7,753 nt of DNA, taken from a virus. Taxonomy: Duplodnaviria > Heunggongvirae > Uroviricota > Caudoviricetes. The translations under genes and the position numbers were made by a program. The stretch covers positions 1-7,753 of IMG/VR virus record IMGVR_UViG_2751185961_000003. One strand, given 5' to 3'. The notes beneath the pieces were generated by a model that was not told the origin of the DNA, did no database searches, and saw only the letters and a program-made list of their open reading frames with translations. This document shows, one piece after another, positions 1 through 7,753 of the stretch (positions within the stretch are counted from its first letter, which is position 1; each line of letters starts with the position of its first letter).

Positions 1-95
1 GCCAGGTCATAAACCTCTTCGGCAGTGACATCGCTGTTCAGTCCCATTTCATGGCGATATATGATTTTTTCTACTCGTTGTTTTGTGATCGTCAT
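1..95 (-). CDS. Hypothetical protein, N-terminal part only (runs off the window start); begins MTITKQRVEKIIYRHEMGLNSDVTAEEVYDL
   Basis: ATG at 93-95 on minus strand with purine-rich GGAG/AAGAG upstream; open frame to position 1; same orientation as the neighbouring operon. Not in ORF track because it is truncated. Confidence 0.4.
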   Translation of the reverse strand, partial: MTITKQRVEKIIYRHEMGLNSDVTAEEVYDL

Positions 96-125
96 TTTTC
101 TCTTCACTCCGATATACAAGGATTA

Positions 126-365
126 CTACACCCCCTCTGCTGATTGCGCGAGCTGGATCCCCTGGTTCCATGCCGTCAATTCCGAAGGCTTCGAAAATGC
201 ATCCATTGCCTTCTGGCGTTGCTCCTGCTTACGGCGTTTATTCCATTTTTTCATGAACAACAGTGACAGCCATCGTCCGCTGCTGAACATGATGTAGAAA
301 TAACCAAGAAGTGCCAGGCCGGTGTTCAGGGCCATATCAATCGTTATCGCCGGGTCAATATTCAC
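126..365 (-). CDS. Small predicted membrane protein (79 aa): N-terminal hydrophobic helix then a highly basic K/R-rich segment
   Basis: GTG start at 363-365 preceded by AGGAGG with 6-nt spacer; start overlaps the 3' end of the upstream gene; hydrophobic stretch LALLGYFYIMF followed by KKWNKRRKQEQRQK. Confidence 0.5.
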   Translation of the reverse strand: MNIDPAITIDMALNTGLALLGYFYIMFSSGRWLSLLFMKKWNKRRKQEQRQKAMDAFSKPSELTAWNQGIQLAQSAEGV

Positions 366-657
366 TGCCCACCTCCTGAAAAATCACCGCATGGCCCAGT
401 TTCTCCGCCAGTGCCAGCTCAGCCCTTGCACCTGCCGACTGCTGCCAGCCTTTCAGCATGTAAACCGCATCCACGCAACGGAGCATTGCCATGCAAATAT
501 CCATGTAGTGTGGTTGAGTCAGCCCGTCCGGAAGTACTGCCGGGTTTAAAACGGTATGCCCTTCCCGTTTCAGTACCTCTTCCGCATTGTGAAACGCCTC
601 ACGGTTGAAATTTTTATACCCGGTCATTGGACCGGCGATATAGACTCTCACCCTCAC
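355..657 (-). CDS. DUF4406 / nucleoside 2-deoxyribosyltransferase-like prophage protein (100 aa)
   Basis: Translation MRVRVYIAGPMTGYKNFNREAFHNAEEVLKREGHTVLNPA matches the family's N-terminal YIAGPMTG motif from memory; GTG start at 655-657 with AGGAGG 7 nt upstream; GTGA start/stop overlap with the upstream gene. Confidence 0.65.
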   Translation of the reverse strand: MRVRVYIAGPMTGYKNFNREAFHNAEEVLKREGHTVLNPAVLPDGLTQPHYMDICMAMLRCVDAVYMLKGWQQSAGARAELALAEKLGHAVIFQEVGSEY

Positions 658-1046
658 TCCATCACCTCCTGAAAGTTTCCCCGATAGAACGCCAGCACAC
701 GCTGCATAACTTCGCTCCTCCTGCTCTCACGACAAATTATGTTCTGCCGTCTGTTGTAACGACGTATTTCTCCGTCAGGTAACTTTCGAATCAGTGTCGG
801 GTCAGCAGCCTTCTCCGGTGTCTTACGCCATACGCGATACGCCTGCTCTGATGGAAATACCCCGCAACCAGAGAGCCAGACATCACCACTGGCCGCAAGC
901 GCACCAGATAAACGACGAATAGCGGTCTTACTGACACCCGTTTTATCTGCCAGTTGTCGAAAAGTTTCTCGTCCGCTCAGGCGCACGAATTCCACAATGC
1001 GCGCCTTCACTTCTTCCCGCTCTTCTGGTGTAAATACTTTTGCCAT
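654..1046 (-). CDS. Helix-turn-helix domain protein (about 130 aa), function unknown
   Basis: ATG at 1044-1046 with GGAGG 5 nt upstream; the ORF-track start at 1061 is a TTG extension. HTH-like segment RQLADKTGVSKTAIRRL. Confidence 0.65.
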   Translation of the reverse strand: MAKVFTPEEREEVKARIVEFVRLSGRETFRQLADKTGVSKTAIRRLSGALAASGDVWLSGCGVFPSEQAYRVWRKTPEKAADPTLIRKLPDGEIRRYNRRQNIICRESRRSEVMQRVLAFYRGNFQEVME

Positions 1047-1061
1047 AAGCGCCTCCGGCAA

Positions 1062-1787
1062 TCACTTTTCCGACACAATACGACCGGATGAATCGACAAT
1101 CTGTCGAACAATATCCCGGTGCTTGTTCAGCTCCCGCAGCGCGGCGCAGACTCGCTCCCACTTCTGAACCTGACCTTTTGCCCGGCGCAGCTCGCGGTTA
1201 GCCACATGCAGCGATGGTAAAATCAGACCATCCGGATGTTTTCTGGTGAACGACGGCTGTGACTGCACTGTGACCGCCACACTTTCCGTTTTTATTTCTT
1301 CCTGTGTTTCTGCTTCCCGGACAGGTAACGCAACACCTGCTGGCTGAGGAAAGGCTTTACCATCGGTTTCCGCTACGGATGCAGCTTCCGGCTCTGCCGG
1401 TAAATCAGCGCCCGGTATGCAGTAACGAAATTTACCGCCCTGATTCACGCGAATCAGACGCCCTTTGCTGATTGCCATGGCCAGCGATGAATTCGCCCGG
1501 CGGGAGGTAATCCCGAACATCAGTGCCAGCTCATCCGCCGTTTGTGGGCCATGTTGTTCAATCGCCTCAGTCAGCATTTGCGCTGTCACTTTCGGTACCG
1601 GTGACACCGGTTCACTTTCACCAGCCTGAATCAGCCGCCACATCGAACCCTTGTTATCCGCTTCACCGCGGCGCTTCAGTTTCCACAGTTCGTTGACCGC
1701 ATCTTCACGGCTGATTCCAAGGCGGGCCGCCACTACCTGTGAAGAGGCTCTTTTCAGTGCTTTCAGTGCGTCAAATACGGTTTCCAT
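1062..1787 (-). CDS. Hypothetical prophage protein (about 241 aa) with two winged-helix-like segments; possibly DUF1627-like
   Basis: ATG at 1785-1787 with GGAGG 8 nt upstream; the ORF-track start at 1805 is a TTG extension. Family guess is from memory only. Confidence 0.6.
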
Positions 1788-1820
1788 TAAAATTTCCTCC
1801 GACAAAATCGTTTCTCAGAT

Positions 1821-2387
1821 TCAAATAAAACCAGCTGCCTTCCGGCGTTCGTATTCCTGTTTCAGCCGTTCAATTGGCGTTGGCCCTTGCGGGTGTTTCG
1901 CCCCTTCCAGTTGTCGTCGCACTGGCGGAACACTCATCCCGTTACCAACATGCTTTGCCCATTTCGTCAGTTGCCGTTCCGCAAGTCGTTTTAACTCACC
2001 CTGCGTCATCTGGCGCTCAATCCCTCTGGTACGCATTTCGAGGCAGATGTGGTACAGCACAGGCTGTGGCCACGGGTATTTATCACTCCCGTCGTATCGC
2101 CAGGATTCATTGCGCCAGCGCCGGTACTCTTCCATCACGGCATCCACCGTAAGACCAAATGGATTTGCCCCACTCTCCGAAATCAGCGCAACAAACTCAG
2201 CCAGGTCCGGGGGCCACGTTTCACCCGCCCGGCAGCGGTCCATGCACTGACGGCAGACCAGCCGGATTTGCTGTTCAGTCATCGTGCCAATCTGGGCAAT
2301 CCAGAGCTTCGAAGGTGCGGCCCCGTTCTTCTGAGTCCAGCGGTTCGAATACACCTCCCCCATAAGCTCCCACAGCTTCCAGGCCAT
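1821..2387 (-). CDS. Lambda P-like replication protein (putative DnaB helicase loader)
   Basis: Translation (WIAQIGTMTEQQ..., PPDLAEFVAL, YPW, MTQGELKRLAERQ) aligns by eye with lambda P as I remember it. Start uncertain: ATG 2385-2387 (MAWKLW) or 2361-2363, both with weak SD; the ORF-track N-terminus to 2483 looks non-coding. Confidence 0.65.
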   Translation of the reverse strand: MAWKLWELMGEVYSNRWTQKNGAAPSKLWIAQIGTMTEQQIRLVCRQCMDRCRAGETWPPDLAEFVALISESGANPFGLTVDAVMEEYRRWRNESWRYDGSDKYPWPQPVLYHICLEMRTRGIERQMTQGELKRLAERQLTKWAKHVGNGMSVPPVRRQLEGAKHPQGPTPIERLKQEYERRKAAGFI

Positions 2388-2991
2388 TTCCGTTGCTGAT
2401 AAATCCGTTGTCTCGTTCCCACTGTTCGCGTGCTGCCCGGATTTCCTGAACTGCCCGTGATGCCGTGCCACCTGATGCTGCATGGCTTACCCCCTTGCTG
2501 ACTGGTTTTACCTGTGCCCTGACGTGCTGCACGTGGCGGGCAAATTTCTGCTCCCACTGAACCTGCGTGAAAACCTTCCCCTCCGCCATCCAGTAATCCC
2601 GGAATGCGGCAAGCTCTGCAGGTGTAAATTCCGGCTCAGGCAGAGCCATACCCCACACTGCTGCCCGTTGTCGAAAATCCGACGACGGCTGCCAGACAGT
2701 AGTCATCGAAAATTTCCCGATCGGTTCGCTCAGGCCGTCCAGGTATTCAGGTTCGGCTGTCTGCAACGGCGCACCATGCGACTCACCGGTTGGAGCACTC
2801 TCGCGCATGCGCGCGTTATGTGTGGGGTTTAATTCTGTATCTGTATCTTTATCTGTCGTGACTTGTCGTGACAGATGCGTGACACGCCGTGACATGTCGT
2901 GACATTTCGTGACGCACTCACCAGAAGGTGGATATACACCGCCATCACTGTTGCGATTGGCTGTCCTGAGACCCTGGCAATGGTTCGCCAT
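2275..2991 (-). CDS. DnaT-like C-terminal domain fragment of a replication initiator (YdaU-like); frame lacks its own convincing start
   Basis: Segment GKFSMTTVWQPSSDFRQRAAVWGMALPEPEFTPAELAAFRDYWMAEGKVFTQVQWEQKFARHVQ closely parallels E. coli DnaT (GKFAMYPDWQPDADF...[20 protein letters not shown]) from memory. Upstream part of this frame runs through the iteron array with no credible SD. Confidence 0.6.
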   Translation of the reverse strand: MANHCQGLRTANRNSDGGVYPPSGECVTKCHDMSRRVTHLSRQVTTDKDTDTELNPTHNARMRESAPTGESHGAPLQTAEPEYLDGLSEPIGKFSMTTVWQPSSDFRQRAAVWGMALPEPEFTPAELAAFRDYWMAEGKVFTQVQWEQKFARHVQHVRAQVKPVSKGVSHAASGGTASRAVQEIRAAREQWERDNGFISNGNGLEAVGAYGGGVFEPLDSEERGRTFEALDCPDWHDD

Positions 2992-3041
2992 TTGGGATCA
3001 TTTGGCATGTCATGCCACAATCTGAGCCAGGCATTAGCCAT
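2829..3041 (-). CDS. N-terminal fragment of the replication initiator (YdaU/DUF1376-like), terminated inside the iteron/AT-rich region
   Basis: ATG at 3039-3041 with GAGG 5 nt upstream; conserved-looking MANAWLRLWHDMPNDPKWRTIARVSGQPIATVMAVYIHLL; stop TAA at 2829-2831; a different frame continues into the DnaT-like domain. Confidence 0.55.
   Translation of the reverse strand: MANAWLRLWHDMPNDPKWRTIARVSGQPIATVMAVYIHLLVSASRNVTTCHGVSRICHDKSRQIKIQIQN
2835..2914. repeat. Iteron-like array: six tandem about 10-bp units (consensus tgtCGTGACa) next to an AT-rich CTGTAT-repeat tract; putative replication origin
   Basis: CGTGAC at 2857, 2867, 2878, 2888, 2898, 2908 (spacing 10, 11, 10, 10, 10); each unit has TGTC/GACA dyad arms; CTGTAT tandem at 2835-2846. 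Confidence 0.7.
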
Positions 3042-3109
3042 ACTCACCTCATCTGATACCGAACTTTACCCTCGAACATCCAGAAGAAATCCGGCATGAA
3101 TATTGTTGG

Positions 3110-3535
3110 TCAATGCACGACAACAGCATTACCAGGCTGACCACCACTGTTAGTCAGGGTGCCCCAGGCGATCGCCGCTGCGACAAAATCATCCACATCT
3201 TTCACCAGCCGATCCCTCCGTTCGACGATCTCACGGTAATATTCAGAGCTGTGACTGCGCATACGGGCCACCAGCAGAGGCGGCATTGCCTTTTCGATCG
3301 CCGGTAACAGAGCCTGAATTTTTTCAACAGCATCAGGGGTGTCTTTATCCAGCCAACGGAAAATTTTCTGGGTATTACGAGCCAGGGCTTCCGGATGGCT
3401 GTCGTCGTACAGTTCCGGGAACGTCATTCCCAGCTCGAAATACGCTTTGGTAATTTTCGCAGCCGGTACTTTTTCGCCGTCCGGATGCGCCCAGACATTC
3501 ATCGCCATGCGGATGTGCTCATGTTTGATTTTCAT
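3110..3535 (-). CDS. YdaT-like (CII-like) prophage regulator, 141 aa
   Basis: ATG at 3533-3535 with GGGAG 7 nt upstream; ATGA overlap with the upstream Cro-like gene; N-terminus MKIKHEHI and gene position (Cro-like, this, replication gene) match the Rac ydaS-ydaT-ydaU arrangement as I recall it. Confidence 0.65.
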   Translation of the reverse strand: MKIKHEHIRMAMNVWAHPDGEKVPAAKITKAYFELGMTFPELYDDSHPEALARNTQKIFRWLDKDTPDAVEKIQALLPAIEKAMPPLLVARMRSHSSEYYREIVERRDRLVKDVDDFVAAAIAWGTLTNSGGQPGNAVVVH

Positions 3536-3786
3536 GAATCAACTCCCATCAGCTTTTTCGTGGTAGTTTTATTTCTGCCAATAGTTAATATTGCATCGGC
3601 AGAAAATAATCCGTTTGATGCAAGAGCGATTTTTTCAGCGTAATTGGTTTCACCGGTATATTCAGTGCGCGGCAATTTCCCGTTATTAATCCACTTGTAG
3701 ATTGCTCTTTGGCTGACACCACAAACGTCGGACACAACAGAAACACGAACAGTTTTGATTACATCTTCAAGTGTGTTCTGGTTCAT
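3532..3786 (-). CDS. Cro/YdaS-like HTH regulator (84 aa)
   Basis: ATG at 3784-3786 with GGAG 5 nt upstream; HTH VSDVCGVSQRAIYKWINNGKLP; divergent from the repressor gene. The ORF-track N-terminal extension to 3858 would cross the promoter region. Confidence 0.7.
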   Translation of the reverse strand: MNQNTLEDVIKTVRVSVVSDVCGVSQRAIYKWINNGKLPRTEYTGETNYAEKIALASNGLFSADAILTIGRNKTTTKKLMGVDS

Positions 3787-3802
3787 ACCATCTCCATAAT
3801 GT

Positions 3803-3865
3803 GAACTTTGGGTACATGATATAGCAGAACTGACAGTACATTCAATAGCGAATATCATTGAACTT
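3803..3865. promoter_or_regulatory. Divergent immunity-region promoters with operator-like repeats (PRM-like plus-strand and PR-like minus-strand)
   Basis: Plus: -35 cTGACA 3830-3835, 17-bp spacer, -10 TATCAT 3853-3858, 7 bp to the ATG at 3866 (leaderless geometry). Minus: -35 TTGAAT (plus 3840-3845), -10 TATATC (plus 3818-3823). Repeats GAAC-N5-GTACAT at 3803-3817 and 3827-3841; dyad TTCAAT-N10-ATTGAA at 3841-3862. Confidence 0.5.
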
Positions 3866-4285
3866 ATGGTTCATGAAGATAAAGCGCGTAAAGAGTTCGC
3901 CAGCAGGCTTGCGCTAGCCTGTGAAAACGCTGGTTATGAACAACACGGGAGGCAGGCAGAAATTGCCCGTCGAATGAAATTAACACCAAAAGCGGTCAGT
4001 AAATGGTTTAATGGCGAAACAATTCCTCGACGAGAGAAATTGAGGGAATTAGCAGCACTCATAGGAACAACGCCAACATATCTTTTGGGCGAGGATACAG
4101 AAAGTAGTGCGCAGGCACGCTTCTATCAGGAGTTAAACCCAAAACAAAAAATCATCATTGACCTTCTAGACGAGCTACCTGACAGTGAAACAGATGAGCT
4201 TTTAAAAACTCTTGAGGAAAAAAAACAGAAGTACAATGCAATTTACGAAGAATTAACACGAAAGAAAAAACAAAAAGCCTCTTGA
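3866..4285 (+). CDS. DicA/RacR-type (cI-like) HTH repressor without peptidase domain, 139 aa
   Basis: N-terminal XRE-type HTH (QAEIARRMKLTPKAVSKWFNGETIPRREKLRELAALIGTTPTYLLGED); acidic/coiled C-terminus (LLDELPDSETDELLKTLEEKKQ) with DicA-like architecture; no SD, consistent with a leaderless transcript. Confidence 0.75.
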   Translation: MVHEDKARKEFASRLALACENAGYEQHGRQAEIARRMKLTPKAVSKWFNGETIPRREKLRELAALIGTTPTYLLGEDTESSAQARFYQELNPKQKIIIDLLDELPDSETDELLKTLEEKKQKYNAIYEELTRKKKQKAS

Positions 4286-4373
4286 TCCAGCATAAATCCG
4301 GTAACATCCCTCCGGGTTTGTGCTTCACTTAATCCCTCCTCATTTTTTTAAACATAAAATGTACTAAAAGTAC

Positions 4374-4406
4374 TTTACACAAATGAACAAAAAGTACATC
4401 ATACAT
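4374..4406 (+). promoter_or_regulatory. Candidate left-operon promoter/operator (OL-like): third copy of GAAC-N5-GTACAT
   Basis: GAAC 4385-4388, GTACAT 4394-4399, same spacing as the two copies at 3803-3841; TTTACA at 4374-4379 is a possible -35, with only weak -10 candidates 17 bp downstream; nearby GTACT-AAAA-GTACT at 4361-4375. Confidence 0.35.
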
Positions 4407-4578
4407 CTACCAACCCACCCCGCTCCACAGAACGCCAGGCAATACTTCGAGTTACCAGGCAGTGGCAAGGGGTTAAGTAGCCAGCCCGAGGCGTAAGAAC
4501 ATGACGGCAGGGTTCAACTTTAACTATGCAGCAGGTTTTTGTTCCGCTCCCCCGGCGTTAAGGGGAAATGAGGTCAGC

Positions 4579-4731
4579 ATGGATACTATCGAGCTTGGCA
4601 ACAGCGAATCTCTGGTATGCGGCGTGTTTCCCAACCAGTACGGCACGTTTACCGCGATGACGTATACCAAAAGTAAAACGTTTAAAACCGAAGCTGGCGC
4701 GCATCGCTGGTTAGCAAGAAACTCCGACTGA
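4579..4731 (+). CDS. YdfA-like small protein (DUF1391), 50 aa
   Basis: ATG 4579-4581 with GAGG 5 nt upstream; MDTIELGNSESLVCGVFPNQYGTFTAMTYTKSKTFKTEAGAHRWLARNSD resembles Qin YdfA from memory. ORF-track start at 4501 has no SD. Confidence 0.6.
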   Translation: MDTIELGNSESLVCGVFPNQYGTFTAMTYTKSKTFKTEAGAHRWLARNSD

Positions 4732-4742
4732 TGAGGTTGACG

Positions 4743-5144
4743 ATGGAATTTAAAGATTTACCAGTACCATTCCAGGAAATGGCATCGAATGCGGTTCGCT
4801 CTCAACTGGCGACTCTTGACCTGAGTACCGTAGAAAAAGAAACCATCGATACTATATCCGGTAACGTGCGTCGTGCCTTTATAGGTCTGTATGAAGAGAA
4901 GCGCCTATTCGGCGGACAGAATTCGCCTGAAAACAAGAATCAAGCAAATGATGAGAAGCTGAAACACATTATCGCCTTACTTTTGGAAGACGCAAAACGT
5001 CTACAGCAACTGGAACCAAATGCAGGCACAGAGGCCCGCATTTGGATTGCCATGAAATCACTCAAATGTGAAAGCAGTGATTATTTCAAAACAACAATTA
5101 AAACTACTCAACTTTCGGGAGAGCTACTGAAGAAATTGCCATAA
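4743..5144 (+). CDS. Hypothetical protein (133 aa), no family recognised; sits where ydfB/ydfC lie in Qin
   Basis: ATG 4743-4745 with GAGG 6 nt upstream; alternatively ATG 4731 overlapping the upstream stop (TGATG). Helical-looking, no transmembrane segment. Confidence 0.6.
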   Translation: MEFKDLPVPFQEMASNAVRSQLATLDLSTVEKETIDTISGNVRRAFIGLYEEKRLFGGQNSPENKNQANDEKLKHIIALLLEDAKRLQQLEPNAGTEARIWIAMKSLKCESSDYFKTTIKTTQLSGELLKKLP

Positions 5145-5383
5145 GAGCATGGTCTTTCTCTTGTTCTGCAAGATGAGCATTAATACCTGGTATGGTTTTT
5201 TCAAATTTATCTATCTGTTGAATAACAACTTCGCGGTATACGTTTGTTTTTGTACCACCAAGCGCAGCCGTTAATGCAGAAAGCATATTTAGTATCATAT
5301 CAGTACGATATGAAAAGAATCCTGATAGCTTCATCTTGTTTTTCAATAATAGATTGCAGGGCCTCAATTTGCTTTTTATCCAT
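5104..5383 (-). CDS. AT-rich convergent ORF with frame ambiguity: 27-aa peptide from the SD-supported ATG, or a frameshifted about 90-aa protein
   Basis: AGGAGG (5389-5394) 5 nt upstream of ATG 5381-5383 gives MDKKQIEALQSIIEKQDEAIRILFISY then stop; the 94-aa track ORF is in another frame whose GTG start (5386-5388) abuts the SD. 3' end overlaps the plus-strand gene by 41 nt. Confidence 0.3.
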
Positions 5384-5704
5384 TTCACCCTCCTGAGGGT
5401 TGGTAATTAAGGAGTTCTCCACGGGTCAGGTGGAGTGCGTGCGCCGGACACGGGTGAGCATCCGGCACTGACAGTTTACTGAAAGGATATGTCCCTGAAA
5501 AGTCAGGGCATAACGCGAAAGCGCACGGCGAAATTGGTCTCTCTGTACGGTGTCGTTAAATTTAGTTCGACCGTGCACTTCCGGTTGTGGCACTCCGCGA
5601 AATGGCGCGGCGGTAAGTATGGCTGGGGTTTCCTCCATTGCTCCAGAAAATGCACCGGGTTGTCAGGTTGACCATACGCTTAAGTGACAGCCCCGCCACA
5701 ATAC

Positions 5705-5762
5705 CCATGCGTAGTCTTTGGTGGCATCAGTTCTACTCCGTGACTGCTCTGCCACCCTTTTT
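5705..5762 (+). ncRNA. dicF: DicF-like small RNA (cell-division-inhibiting sRNA homolog)
   Basis: 3' 41 nt (tttggtggcatcagttctactccgtgactgctctgccaccc + T5) about 90% identical to E. coli K-12 DicF as I remember it, with a compensatory stem change (GGCGG/CCGCC to GGTGG/CCACC); located just upstream of a dicB homolog. Confidence 0.55.
5720..5762 (+). terminator. Intrinsic terminator-like hairpin forming the DicF 3' end
   Basis: Stem GGTGGCA (5720-5726) / TGCCACC (5750-5756) followed by CTTTTT (5757-5762). Confidence 0.5.
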
Positions 5763-5944
5763 AAAGTGAATTTTGTGATGCGGTGAATGCGGCTATGCGC
5801 ACGCGGAACAGTTAAAACCGTAAAGTGGTCTTTTACGGGGCGTAACGGGCATCCTTCTGTATTCCGGCGTTAATTGTTAACTGGTTAACGTCACCTGGAG
5901 GCACCAGGCACTGCATCACAAAATTCATTGTTGAGGACGCGATA

Positions 5945-6133
5945 ATGGAAACGTTATTACCAAACGTTAATACGTCTGAAGGTTGTTTTGATATTGGTGT
6001 TCTGCTCAGTAACCGGGAGTTTACGGAAGATGCCATTAAGATGAGAAAATATGAACCTTATCTTCTCAATGATAATTCCATACTTTCCAGAATTGCCCTT
6101 CTTGAACTTGGTATTATCGGAGAACAGCAGTGA
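5945..6133 (+). CDS. dicB: DicB-like cell division inhibitor, 62 aa
   Basis: METLLPNVNTSEGCFDIGVLLSN... closely resembles K-12 DicB N-terminus (MKTLLPNVNTSEGCFEIGV...) from memory; GAGG 8 nt upstream of ATG; follows the dicF-like element. Confidence 0.8.
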   Translation: METLLPNVNTSEGCFDIGVLLSNREFTEDAIKMRKYEPYLLNDNSILSRIALLELGIIGEQQ

Positions 6134-6318
6134 CTTCAGCGTTTGCACTGATAATGACCGTTTTTCTTATAACGGGTGAGCCGCAGAATGTGATTACCGG
6201 AATTTATGACAGTAAGTCATCCTGCATTCAGGTAAGGGACGAACAAAAAATCCCCGGTGAATGCCTCCCGTTAAAAAAAGTATCGCTGTACCTGAATAAC
6301 GAAACACCGGCTGGATAA
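6130..6318 (+). CDS. YdfD-like small protein (62 aa)
   Basis: GTG start overlapping the dicB stop (GTGA) with GGAG 7 nt upstream; MTSAFALIMTVFLITGEP... has a hydrophobic N-terminus and sits where ydfD follows dicB in Qin. Confidence 0.6.
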   Translation: MTSAFALIMTVFLITGEPQNVITGIYDSKSSCIQVRDEQKIPGECLPLKKVSLYLNNETPAG

Positions 6319-6410
6319 CCCGCCAGCCATATTAACGCCATACCAACGGATTAAAAATGCCAGCAATGGCAGGAATTTGTTCATCCTTAAAATGGTTATG
6401 AGGTTTATCA

Positions 6411-7753
6411 ATGAACGCTGATAAAGAAGAAATTGCACTATATTACGAAGCCAAAAATGACAAAGTCAGAAAACGCCTTGGGATTAAAGGTGGTTTTTAC
6501 TGGCGCACAGCAAAAAAATTATCGGTTGCAATATCACGCGGTGTTGCTGCAATGGACGATGCCGGATTTGACGAAGAGGATTTTAAAAAACCCATCCGCG
6601 TCCATTTACCCGTTGTGAATGACCTTCCACCGGAAGGTGTGTTTGATACTGAATTCTGCAACCGATACGAAAAAGGCGGAGAAGATGGTATCACAATGAT
6701 ATTTATAGCGCCCTCCCCCTCAGTTCAGGACAAACCAGCCAGCACTGACAATACCAACGTCAATGGCGAAGACATGGCTGAGATTGAGGATAATATGCTC
6801 CTGCCGATTTCCGGTCAGGAACTGCCCATTCGCTGGCTTGCGCAACATGGCAGCGAAAAACCGGTAACGCACGTTTCACGAGAAGAACTTCAGGCATTAC
6901 ATATCGCACGAGCTGAAGAACTACCGGCTGTTACTGGCCTGGCTATTTCCCACAACACAAAGCTGCTCGACCCGCTGGAGATTCGCGACCTTCACAAATT
7001 GGTACGCGACACTGACAAAGTTTTCCCTAATCCCGTTAATTCCAGTCTGGGGTTCATGACTGCTTTTTTCGAAGCATACCTGGACACTGACTATACCGAT
7101 CGAGGTCTGCTGACAAAAGAGTGGATGAAAGGAAATCGTGTTTCTCGCATCACCCGCACGGCTTCCGGTGCAAATGCCGGTGGCGGAAATAAAACCGATC
7201 GTAATCCTGACTTAGTACACACCCTCGATACTCTGGATGTGGAGGCTGCAGCAGCCACGCTTCCGATGGATTTTAATATTTATGAAATTCCCGGGAGCGT
7301 TTATCGTCGCGCAAAAGAAATCGTCCTGAAAAAAGAAAGTCCGTTCAGGGAATGGTCCGCAGCACTTCGCGCAACCCCTGGTATCCTGGACTATTCCCGC
7401 GCAGCTATTTTTGCACTTATCCGAAGCGCCCACCCTGAGTTTTATCACTACCCGGGGCGCCTTCAGGGGTATATCAATGCCAACCTGACAGAAACTGATC
7501 ACGAGAATCCCACAGCTGAAACGCTCATGGCTGCCCGGCATACACCGGAAAAAGATATCCTGGAAGAAATTAACGGCGGACTGGCTGCTGAGTGCAAAAC
7601 AGAAGAAGAAAAAAATGATGAAGATAACCCGCAGCCGCTGGATGACAAGTCACAGGTAAAAGTTACCGCTGACGAAGTAAACAAAATTATGCAGGCAGCC
7701 AATATCAGCCAGCCTGACGCCGATAAGTTGCTTGCTGCCTCTCGCGGAGAATT
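6411..7753 (+). CDS. Large RecE-like (exodeoxyribonuclease VIII, N-terminal region) ORF, truncated at the window end (447 codons seen, no stop)
   Basis: ATG 6411 with GAGG 7 nt upstream; my own translation is open to position 7753. Segments NVNGEDMAEIEDNMLLPISGQELPIRWLAQHGSEKPVTHVSR and KLLAASRGE match my recollection of Rac RecE. Absent from the ORF track because it lacks a stop. Confidence 0.55.
   Translation, partial: MNADKEEIALYYEAKNDKVRKRLGIKGGFYWRTAKKLSVAISRGVAAMDDAGFDEEDFKKPIRVHLPVVNDLPPEGVFDTEFCNRYEKGGEDGITMIFIAPSPSVQDKPASTDNTNVNGEDMAEIEDNMLLPISGQELPIRWLAQHGSEKPVTHVSREELQALHIARAEELPAVTGLAISHNTKLLDPLEIRDLHKLVRDTDKVFPNPVNSSLGFMTAFFEAYLDTDYTDRGLLTKEWMKGNRVSRITRTASGANAGGGNKTDRNPDLVHTLDTLDVEAAAATLPMDFNIYEIPGSVYRRAKEIVLKKESPFREWSAALRATPGILDYSRAAIFALIRSAHPEFYHYPGRLQGYINANLTETDHENPTAETLMAARHTPEKDILEEINGGLAAECKTEEEKNDEDNPQPLDDKSQVKVTADEVNKIMQAANISQPDADKLLAASRGE

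Follow-up and report, generated by a model that had tools for sequence, protein, structure and literature searches.

Organization of the locus

The window analyzed here is a stretch of 7,753 nucleotides (positions 1 to 7,753 of IMG/VR virus record IMGVR_UViG_2751185961_000003, Caudoviricetes). Near its middle lies a divergent pair of a cro-like gene and a repressor gene, bordered on the cro side by ydaT and on the repressor side by genes of the ydfA-dicF-dicB type. Features and coordinates are collected in Table 1. For the Cro-side promoter, alignment to the HK022 pR annotation gives an alternative -10 element at 3823-3818.

Table 1. Features of the switch region and its flanks (window positions; operator and promoter assignments are predictions)
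Feature	Position	Strand	Remarks
YdaT gene (CII-equivalent)	3110-3535	-	protein nearly identical to PDB 8bt1 (E = 7e-83)
YdaT operator	3525-3542		TTGATTTTCATGAATCAA; cro/ydaT junction, left edge of cassette; exact match to TTGATT-N6-AATCAA
Cro-like gene	3532-3786	-	84 aa; ATG at 3786, GGAG ribosome-binding site before it
Exchangeable immunity cassette	3542-4407		cro-like gene, OR, repressor gene, OL, PL
OR1	3802-3816		TGAACTTTGGGTACA; just downstream of and overlapping -10 of Cro-side promoter; covers expected start
Cro-side promoter (PR-like)	3816-3845	-	-35 TTGAAT (3845-3840), 18-bp spacer, -10 TATCAT (3821-3816)
OR2	3826-3840		AGAACTGACAGTACA; in spacer of Cro-side promoter; centre holds repressor-promoter -35 CTGACA
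Repressor maintenance promoter (PRM-like)	3830-3858	+	CTGACA, 17-bp spacer, TATCAT; promoter scan, 10/12 matches
OR3	3859-3873		TGAACTTATGGTTCA; centred on A of repressor ATG (3866)
Immunity repressor gene	3866-4285	+	139 aa; Pfam HTH_3; HK022/933W-type HTH (~residues 1-75) plus short DicA-like helical tail
OL2	4360-4374		TGTACTAAAAGTACT; adjoins -35 of leftward-operon promoter on its upstream side
Leftward-operon promoter (PL, dicBp equivalent)	4374-4402	+	TTTACA, 17-bp spacer, CATCAT; promoter scan; ahead of ydfA
OL1	4384-4398		TGAACAAAAAGTACA; in spacer of leftward-operon promoter, overlapping its -10
Operon under PL-like promoter	4579-6133	+	ydfA, 133-aa ORF, DicF, dicB; Pfam, Rfam and annotation of relatives L001-L003
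ydfA (DUF1391)	4579-4731	+	Pfam
133-aa ORF	4743-5144	+	
DicF sRNA	5706-5757	+	Rfam, 58.9 bits
dicB	5945-6133	+	Pfam

Number and form of the repeated sites

A sequence-only reading of this DNA had reported three copies of the word GAAC-N5-GTACAT, the first two 24 bp apart. Searching the window with GAACNNNNNGTACAT returned the same three exact plus-strand matches (3803-3817, 3827-3841 and 4385-4399) and the same spacing. In 200 dinucleotide shuffles the mean number of matches was 0.01, and three matches were obtained in 0/200. When one mismatch was allowed, two further matches appeared: GAACTTATGGTTCAT at 3860-3874 (plus strand), lying across the repressor ATG at 3866, and GTACTTTTAGTACAT at 4359-4373 (minus strand), giving 5 matches where 0.34 are expected. 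The three reported copies are thus exact, but the total is five sites, three in OR and two in OL.

The form of the motif, on the other hand, had to be revised. Both halves of each site fit GWAC, and the word is better described as a symmetric core, GWAC-N5-GTWC, that belongs to a site of 15 bp, TGWAC-N5-GTWCA, whose frame begins one base to the left of GAAC-N5-GTACAT. The trailing “AT” of the earlier form consists partly of the outer operator base and partly of adjoining promoter hexamers, and it is missing at OR2 and OR3 of distant loci. The asymmetric reading was rejected for these reasons and because its frame is the annotated 15-mer shifted by one base. The symmetric core fits 5/5 sites, and no other exact core occurs in the 7.7-kb window. 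Note that one core match alone would be unremarkable (chance gives about 0.4 per window), whereas a cluster of five on three promoters is rare.

A weight matrix was trained on sites from other species only, with the window and its close relatives left out. It recovers exactly the five sites at 16.3-20.5 bits, the next best match in the 7.7-kb window scoring 7.7 bits. Half-site counts pooled over 159 distinct sites read a-T-G-W-A-C-T/C with an A/T centre, in agreement with the in vitro preferences of 933W (PMC3317979).

Agreement with annotated HK022 and 933W operators

The sequence-only reading had likened the arrangement to the OR/OL logic of lambda, with a motif pair overlapping the -10 and -35 elements of the divergent promoters. 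OR1 does overlap the Cro-side -10 and OR2 does contain the -35 of the repressor promoter, and the records of HK022 and of 933W and 24B annotate the same sequence, spacing and promoter overlaps. In the HK022 record (X16093, 1989) the oR sites read TGAACTTATGGTTCA, GGAACTGATAGTACA and TGAACTTATGGTTCA; they are spaced by 24 and 33 bp, and cI begins in the middle of the third. The window shows the same spacings, with the third site centred on the repressor ATG, and relative to that ATG the OR cores start at -63, -39 and -6, as they do in HK022. By position OR1 matches HK022 oR 430-444 and 933W oR1, and OR2 matches HK022 oR 454-468 and 933W oR2, while OR3 is identical in sequence to the annotated HK022 oR sites 430-444 and 487-501. 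The left side also agrees. OL2 and OL1 have their counterparts in HK022 oL 1262-1276 (TGTACTATTGGTACT) and 1286-1300 (TGAACTTTAAGTACA); in both phages the two sites are 24 bp apart around the promoter, and the window pair brackets TTTACA and overlaps CATCAT, hexamers identical to the annotated -35 and -10 of HK022 pL.

The 933W (AF125520) and phi24B (HM208303) records place oR1-3 in the same positions, with OR3 over the cI ATG and the -35 of pM/pRM inside oR2, as in the window. For 933W the site has been mapped biochemically. It is 15 bp long and symmetric, positions 2-5 (G-(A/T)-A-C) are essential, T or C is favoured at position 6, and the centre is A/T. There are five natural sites (3 OR and 2 OL), the repressor was shown to bind its operators with contacts from S41, K42 and K46, and binding at OR1 and OR2 was reported to be non-cooperative (PMC3317979). 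All five window sites (5/5) are likewise symmetric, 15 bp long and rich in A/T at the centre, and carry G-(A/T)-A-C at positions 2-5 and 2'-5'. The 933W sites differ in that they start with C, where those of the window start with T, and in being more degenerate, with family-matrix scores of 10-14 bits.

HK022 itself departs from the window in several ways. An additional far-right site follows cro in HK022, and an OL3 has been reported; a search of the 7.7-kb window for analogues of these two sites found neither. HK022 pL drives nun and kil-cIII and the window PL ydfA-dicF-dicB, and HK022 uses CII where the window has YdaT as the equivalent. By sequence and layout this is an ordinary prophage immunity region, and its operator type is already known, being the HK022 type described from 1989 onward.

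Repressor and Cro-like proteins

Both regulators are homologous to those of HK022 and 933W. In a tblastn search of phage records, the DNA-binding domain of the repressor matched HK022 CI at 58% and 933W CI at 51% identity. The recognition helix, TPKAVSKWFNGE, is one conservative residue apart from that of HK022 (TPKAISKWFNGE), and K42, S45, K46, W47 and N49 are invariant in the protein alignment. The base-contact lysines of 933W, K42 and K46, are therefore retained, with P41 in place of 933W S41. Identity of the Cro-like protein to Cro of HK022 is 60% and to Cro of 933W 47%, and the protein co-varies with the operator word across loci. Searches of PDB sequences returned only a weak match to P22 C2 for the repressor and no match for the Cro-like protein.

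The alignment of the repressor with HK022 and 933W CI spans the N-terminal domain only. HK022 CI has 235 aa including an S24 autocleavage domain, and the 933W repressor is likewise of the S24 type, whereas a Pfam search with the 139-aa window repressor gave no Peptidase_S24 match. Because this domain is absent, the protein is, as judged by alignment, a relative of HK022 CI in its DNA-binding domain only and not a full orthologue. Its remaining part resembles DicA: the match to the DicA model NF007257 covers residues 29-137 but scores 57.4 bits against a curated cutoff of 101, and residues 30-136 are 27% identical to K-12 DicA. By these comparisons the repressor is DicA-like in architecture and lies outside the curated DicA family. 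The replacement of a LexA-type cleavage domain by a short DicA-like tail is, on the protein alignments, the unusual point of this switch.

Conservation of the sites

The nearest relatives in E. coli, Shigella and phages are only ~91-93% identical to the window. Four-way alignments show substitutions in the N5 spacers and in the stretches that separate the sites; those in OR1 among relatives are confined to its N5 spacer. The comparison was extended to 83 close relatives chosen by 1.4-kb homology alone, not by intact cores; 3/40 core positions vary as against 55/165 non-core positions (one-sided Fisher p = 4.6e-4), and each of the varying core positions is changed in 1-4 of the 83. The spacer of OR2 behaves differently, being kept as TGA[ACT]A across the operator family. 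As OR2 also contains the -35 of the repressor promoter, this fits a double constraint.

Homologues of the DNA-binding domain, from 99% down to 40% identity, were found in several gamma-proteobacterial families, including Salmonella, Klebsiella, Raoultella, Enterobacter, Kluyvera, Brenneria, Pantoea and Providencia as well as Vibrio, Photobacterium, Haemophilus and other Pasteurellaceae, Pseudomonas and Salinicola. The motif search in related prophages that had been proposed as a check gave this result: in 35/38 loci at least 3 exact cores lie no more than 100 bp from the repressor start, mostly at -63, -39 and -6. Most loci have the OR3 core start at -6 relative to the ATG. A downstream pair of cores 24-25 bp apart, 0.5-3 kb away, is present in 28/38. 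Some loci carry cargo between the repressor gene and the downstream pair; in Salmonella this is HigBA, and in Raoultella and Klebsiella it is an AAA ATPase. Thirty-two of the 38 repressors are of S24 (LexA-like) size and six, that of the window included, are short-tailed.

Exchange of the immunity cassette

Prophages of three other immunity types share the ydaT and ydfA flanks of the window but carry a LexA-type CI, RacR or another 139-aa protein. Homology to them stops at 3541/3546 and resumes at 4408, just past OL1, and the core GWAC-N5-GTWC is absent from these same-flank prophages with other repressors. From these breakpoints the exchanged unit comprises cro, OR, the repressor gene and OL/PL, which is the composition of classical lambdoid imm regions. 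One of these prophages (L006) separates the two parts of the repressor. Its repressor has the same C-terminal tail joined to an unrelated N-terminal DNA-binding domain, and its switch carries another palindrome, ATACC-N4-GGTAT, in the same layout, with a pair 25 bp apart just before homology resumes. The operator word thus follows the DNA-binding domain. A literature search found no paper on this particular cassette, and a full-text search for four OR2 sequences gave no relevant match, only one unrelated nanobody paper.

Comparison with Qin, CP-933P and lambda

In gene content the window resembles the Qin prophage of E. coli K-12 with its DicA/DicC/dicBp switch. There too, the repressor is short (135-139 aa for the pair), lacks a cleavage site and has a similar C-terminal tail, a cro-like gene is divergently placed, and a PL-equivalent just past the repressor gene leads into ydfABC-dicF-dicB. 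The Qin DNA-binding domain, however, is only distantly related (27% identity overall), its cro-type protein is unrelated, and its switch region shows other words. Qin DicA has been described as a short, non-cleavable dicBp repressor, with an antirepressor relieving the repression (bioRxiv 10.1101/2023.04.14.536235).

CP-933P (E. coli O157:H7; PaaR2/YdaS/YdaT) shares with the window a near-identical YdaT and an exact YdaT operator, the published form of which is TTGATT-N6-AATCAA (PMC9986795). YdaT together with this operator at the cro/ydaT junction marks the window module as CP-933P-type. In both, moreover, the repressor and cro-like genes are divergent, ~80-97 bp apart, and past the repressor operon lies a PL-type promoter with operators. 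Their repressor and Cro modules differ (the PaaR2 operator consensus is GTTTAGTAA), and CP-933P has a toxin-antitoxin pair behind the repressor gene, which the window lacks.

With lambda the likeness is one of logic. In both, the divergent promoters have three OR sites between them, OL sits at the leftward promoter beyond the repressor gene, the paired sites are 24 bp apart and the repressor mRNA starts at the AUG, which for the window is a prediction. The lambda operators are unrelated in sequence, are 17 bp long and include three OL sites, as against 15 bp and two OL sites here. Lambda OR2 lies upstream of the PRM -35 (at about -42), whereas window OR2 contains the -35 (centre at about -33). 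Positive autoregulation of the window repressor should be considered uncertain due to this difference.

Predicted operation of the switch

The five sites are very probably switch operators of the HK022/933W type, bound by the repressor and, by analogy, also by Cro, with block of PR and PL, autoregulation at OR3 and a leaderless repressor mRNA. The 139-aa repressor would bind each 15-bp symmetric site as a dimer, and by lambdoid analogy the Cro-like protein would bind there too. Repressor at OR1 and OR2 would occlude the Cro-side promoter, and repressor at OL1 and OL2 would occlude the promoter of ydfA-dicF-dicB. As OR3 lies over the repressor's own transcription and translation start, its occupation would result in negative autoregulation. 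Transcription from the maintenance promoter would give a repressor mRNA whose 5' end is at the AUG or one base upstream. The sequence-only reading had suggested that one repressor controls both the Cro-side promoter and a dicB-type operon; this gains support from the repressor and Cro homologies and from DicF and DicB found downstream.

We infer binding itself, the order in which sites are filled, any cooperativity or OL-OR looping, activation from OR2 and the exact start site from these comparisons. HK022 CI is described in PMC8053113 as binding adjacent sites cooperatively and looping OL to OR, and the same source cites the demonstration of binding in HK022 and, on its immunity region, Carlson and Little (1993). 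Note that in HK022 the S24 domain serves dimerization and cooperativity; since the window repressor lacks this domain, the cooperative and looping behaviour of HK022 is not simply transferable to it.

One could suppose that only one of the two regulators, the Cro-like protein or the repressor, binds these sites and that the other recognizes something else in the region. The computed evidence does not separate the two proteins, both of which co-vary with the motif, and three loci (L011, L012 and L015) lack a cro gene but keep a repressor and the three OR sites, from which it follows that the sites can exist without Cro. These loci without cro speak for use of the sites by at least the repressor, and the 933W repressor is shown to bind its own (PMC3317979). 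CI and Cro share operators in lambdoid switches, a point restated for CP-933P (PMC8630535), and the Cro-like protein is close to HK022 Cro. A division of this kind is therefore unlikely, and use of the sites by both proteins is preferred.

Binding by YdaT, or by a host factor, in place of the cassette's own repressor is highly improbable. What speaks for YdaT is that it is a CII-like, DNA-binding tetramer that recognizes an inverted repeat and is encoded next door, 250 bp away. Its published site, however, is present separately at 3525-3542, prophages with near-identical YdaT and other repressors have no GWAC-N5-GTWC, and HK022 and 933W carry the sites although they use CII and not YdaT; YdaT was rejected as the binder on the first two of these grounds. 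A host-factor site would not be expected to swap with the cassette or to track the DNA-binding domain across bacterial families.

Finally, type I restriction systems recognize bipartite words, for example of the AAC-N6-GTGC type, and the repeats might be imagined to be such a word, a by-product of AT-rich promoters or chance. One core match per 7.7 kb is indeed unremarkable and the “AT” tail is partly promoter hexamer, but a reading without any operator role has next to no probability given five sites where ~0.4 is expected, all of them on three promoters, core letters that are kept while spacers and flanks vary, offsets fixed in those 35/38 loci down to 40% protein identity, and operator annotation in HK022, 933W and 24B with biochemical mapping in 933W (PMC3317979); the restriction-type word was rejected on its spacing, its symmetry and the promoter-only location of the sites.

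Start of the repressor mRNA

The mRNA for lambda cI made from PRM is leaderless, and the sequence-only reading had proposed the same for the window repressor. The -10 hexamer TATCAT (3853-3858) is followed by TGAACTT and then by the ATG at 3866, leaving 7 nt that contain neither a Shine-Dalgarno sequence nor a purine-rich tract. Promoter-scan geometry puts the expected start at 3865/3866, that is at the ATG, the predicted start being the 8th base after the -10. A TAnnAT hexamer adjoins OR3 in almost all of the 38 loci, and in ~30 of them the ATG follows 7 nt on with no Shine-Dalgarno sequence. Codons 2-3 (GTT CAx or GTA CAx) form the right half of OR3, which accounts for the M-V-(H/Q) N-terminus of this repressor family.

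Pasteurellaceae loci vary this arrangement. They have the same -10 and OR3, but these are followed by a leader of 19-24 nt with AGGTGA or AGGAA, and the repressors behind the leader begin with MITEE, MNEEK or MISEE. A leader with a Shine-Dalgarno sequence is what is expected if transcription starts at the centre of OR3. The phi24B record (HM208303) has the pRM start 1 nt upstream of the cI ATG; the window mRNA may accordingly carry a leader of 1 nt. The paaR2 mRNA of CP-933P was found to be leaderless by 5' RACE (PMC8630535). The geometry, the ~30 loci, the Pasteurellaceae variants and the 24B annotation all support the proposal, and the repressor mRNA is probably leaderless, with its start at or one base before the AUG.

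Implications

For a cassette that is uncharacterized and present in hundreds of E. coli genomes, O157:H7 included, the analysis provides an operator map (five sites and three promoters) that is precise and open to test, and it names the repressor that would be expected to silence the toxic dicF/dicB operon in these prophages. It also describes an operator and DNA-binding-domain pair kept at the same base-pair spacing across several gamma-proteobacterial families, around which the repressor C-terminal domain and the cargo between repressor gene and OL have been exchanged; this is tidy modular switch evolution with no new mechanism.

A more tentative suggestion follows from the joining of a domain of HK022/933W specificity to a non-cleavable DicA-like tail. 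The repressor might act as a paralogue insensitive to SOS and might bind, besides its own operators, those of HK022-like and perhaps of 933W-like (Shiga-toxin) phages. If so, it could give cross-immunity or dampen the induction of Stx phages, and dicF/dicB would be tied to that immunity group. The host of 933W, E. coli O157:H7, carries the cassette (L002).

Repressor promoter and translation start

The N5 spacer of OR2 was nearly constant over all loci (TGATA, TGAAA or TGACA), whereas the spacers of the other operators were not. This spacer forms the −35 element (CTGAnA) of the repressor promoter, and a single stretch therefore serves as operator centre and promoter element. In the stretch from about −90 to 0 relative to the repressor ATG, eight Pasteurellaceae loci (L034, L036–L041 and L043) carry the same three operators and −10 element as the other loci. 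Their OR3 lies 25–30 nt 5′ of the ATG, a leader that contains a Shine-Dalgarno sequence separates the two, and their repressors begin with MITEE, MNEEK or MISEE instead of MV(H/Q). Judged by sequence, these loci have a leader in a design that elsewhere has none. Upstream of dicA in E. coli K-12, 9 nt separate TAGCAT from the ATG and no Shine-Dalgarno sequence is obvious; the dicA mRNA might likewise have no leader or almost none.

Cassette boundary and exchange

The left boundary of the exchangeable cassette, where similarity to prophages with other immunity types stops (3541/3546), coincides exactly with an operator for YdaT. This operator covers both the start of ydaT and the end of the cro-like gene. 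One of these other types was found in E. coli TUM1857 (L006), between the same flanks as in the window. Its 139-aa repressor shares the C-terminal tail of the window repressor and has an unrelated N-terminal domain. The operator word here is the palindrome ATACC-N4-GGTAT, of which the switch holds two copies 24 bp apart, with more near the ATG, and the PL equivalent a pair 25 bp apart. Because TATTAT lies 6 nt 5′ of the L006 repressor ATG, this mRNA, too, is probably leaderless.

Over positions 3400–4800 of the window, none of the E. coli complete genomes, phage records and viral contigs compared exceeded about 93% identity. The DNA-binding domain of a Shigella flexneri repressor is 99% identical to that of the window repressor.

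Features located in the window and in comparison loci
Feature	Locus	Position	Strand	Remarks
YdaT operator	window	3525–3542		TTGATTTTCATGAATCAA; exact match to published TTGATT-N6-AATCAA
OR2 N5 spacer	window	3831–3835
Operon leader	window	4408–4578		PL-like promoter to ydfA
94-aa ORF	window	5104–5388	−	inside otherwise plus-strand ydfA-dicB operon
Extra site past cro	L130 (HK022)	163–177		GTACTAAAAGTAC
Cassette as in window	L002 (E. coli O157:H7 MB41-1)	3259–3900
Different immunity type	L006 (E. coli TUM1857)	1930–2010, 2463–2501
S24-type repressor, three OR sites	L011 (metagenomic)	about 1946–2500
Cargo	L007/L008	3053–3755
Cargo	L010	3308–4750
Region upstream of dicA	L133 (E. coli K-12)	1400–1437

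Relation to HK022 and 933W

HK022-like loci contain an extra site just past cro: it is present in HK022 itself and in L021, L024 and L027, where its distance from the ATG is about −330. It agrees with an operator with a role in immunity that has been reported 300 bp downstream of OR; no such extra site occurs in the window. The O157:H7 strain MB41-1 carries the same cassette as the window, including the non-cleavable repressor. O157:H7 is also the host of 933W, and the CI protein of that phage recognises operators of the same family; the two immunity systems could conceivably interfere with each other.

Loci with cargo or without cro

In L007/L008, L010 and L014, cargo separates the OL pair from the repressor gene. 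The Salmonella cargo is a HigB/HigA toxin-antitoxin pair, and that of Raoultella and Klebsiella encodes a 480-aa AAA/SMC-like ATPase. Lambda has rexAB in this position, and the O157:H7 prophage CP-933P has paaA2-parE2. Three further loci, L011 and L012 (both metagenomic) and L015 (Enterobacter sp.), encode an S24-type repressor with three OR sites, directly followed by an antiterminator-Q gene, holins and a glycoside hydrolase 19. In these three, the cro gene is absent and the OL pair was not found; the arrangement could be a remnant, or else a lysis module reduced to the minimum and controlled by the repressor.

Operon leader and minus-strand ORF

The leader of ∼170 nt is about 91–93% conserved in all immunity types examined. 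It includes the GC-rich patches CCAACCCACCCCGC... and GCCAGCCCGAGGC, and may hold a nut-like site or a structure. Within the operon, the 94-aa ORF and the 133-aa ORF overlap at the end of the latter. The 94-aa ORF has no Pfam match; in relatives, a hypothetical protein is annotated at its position.
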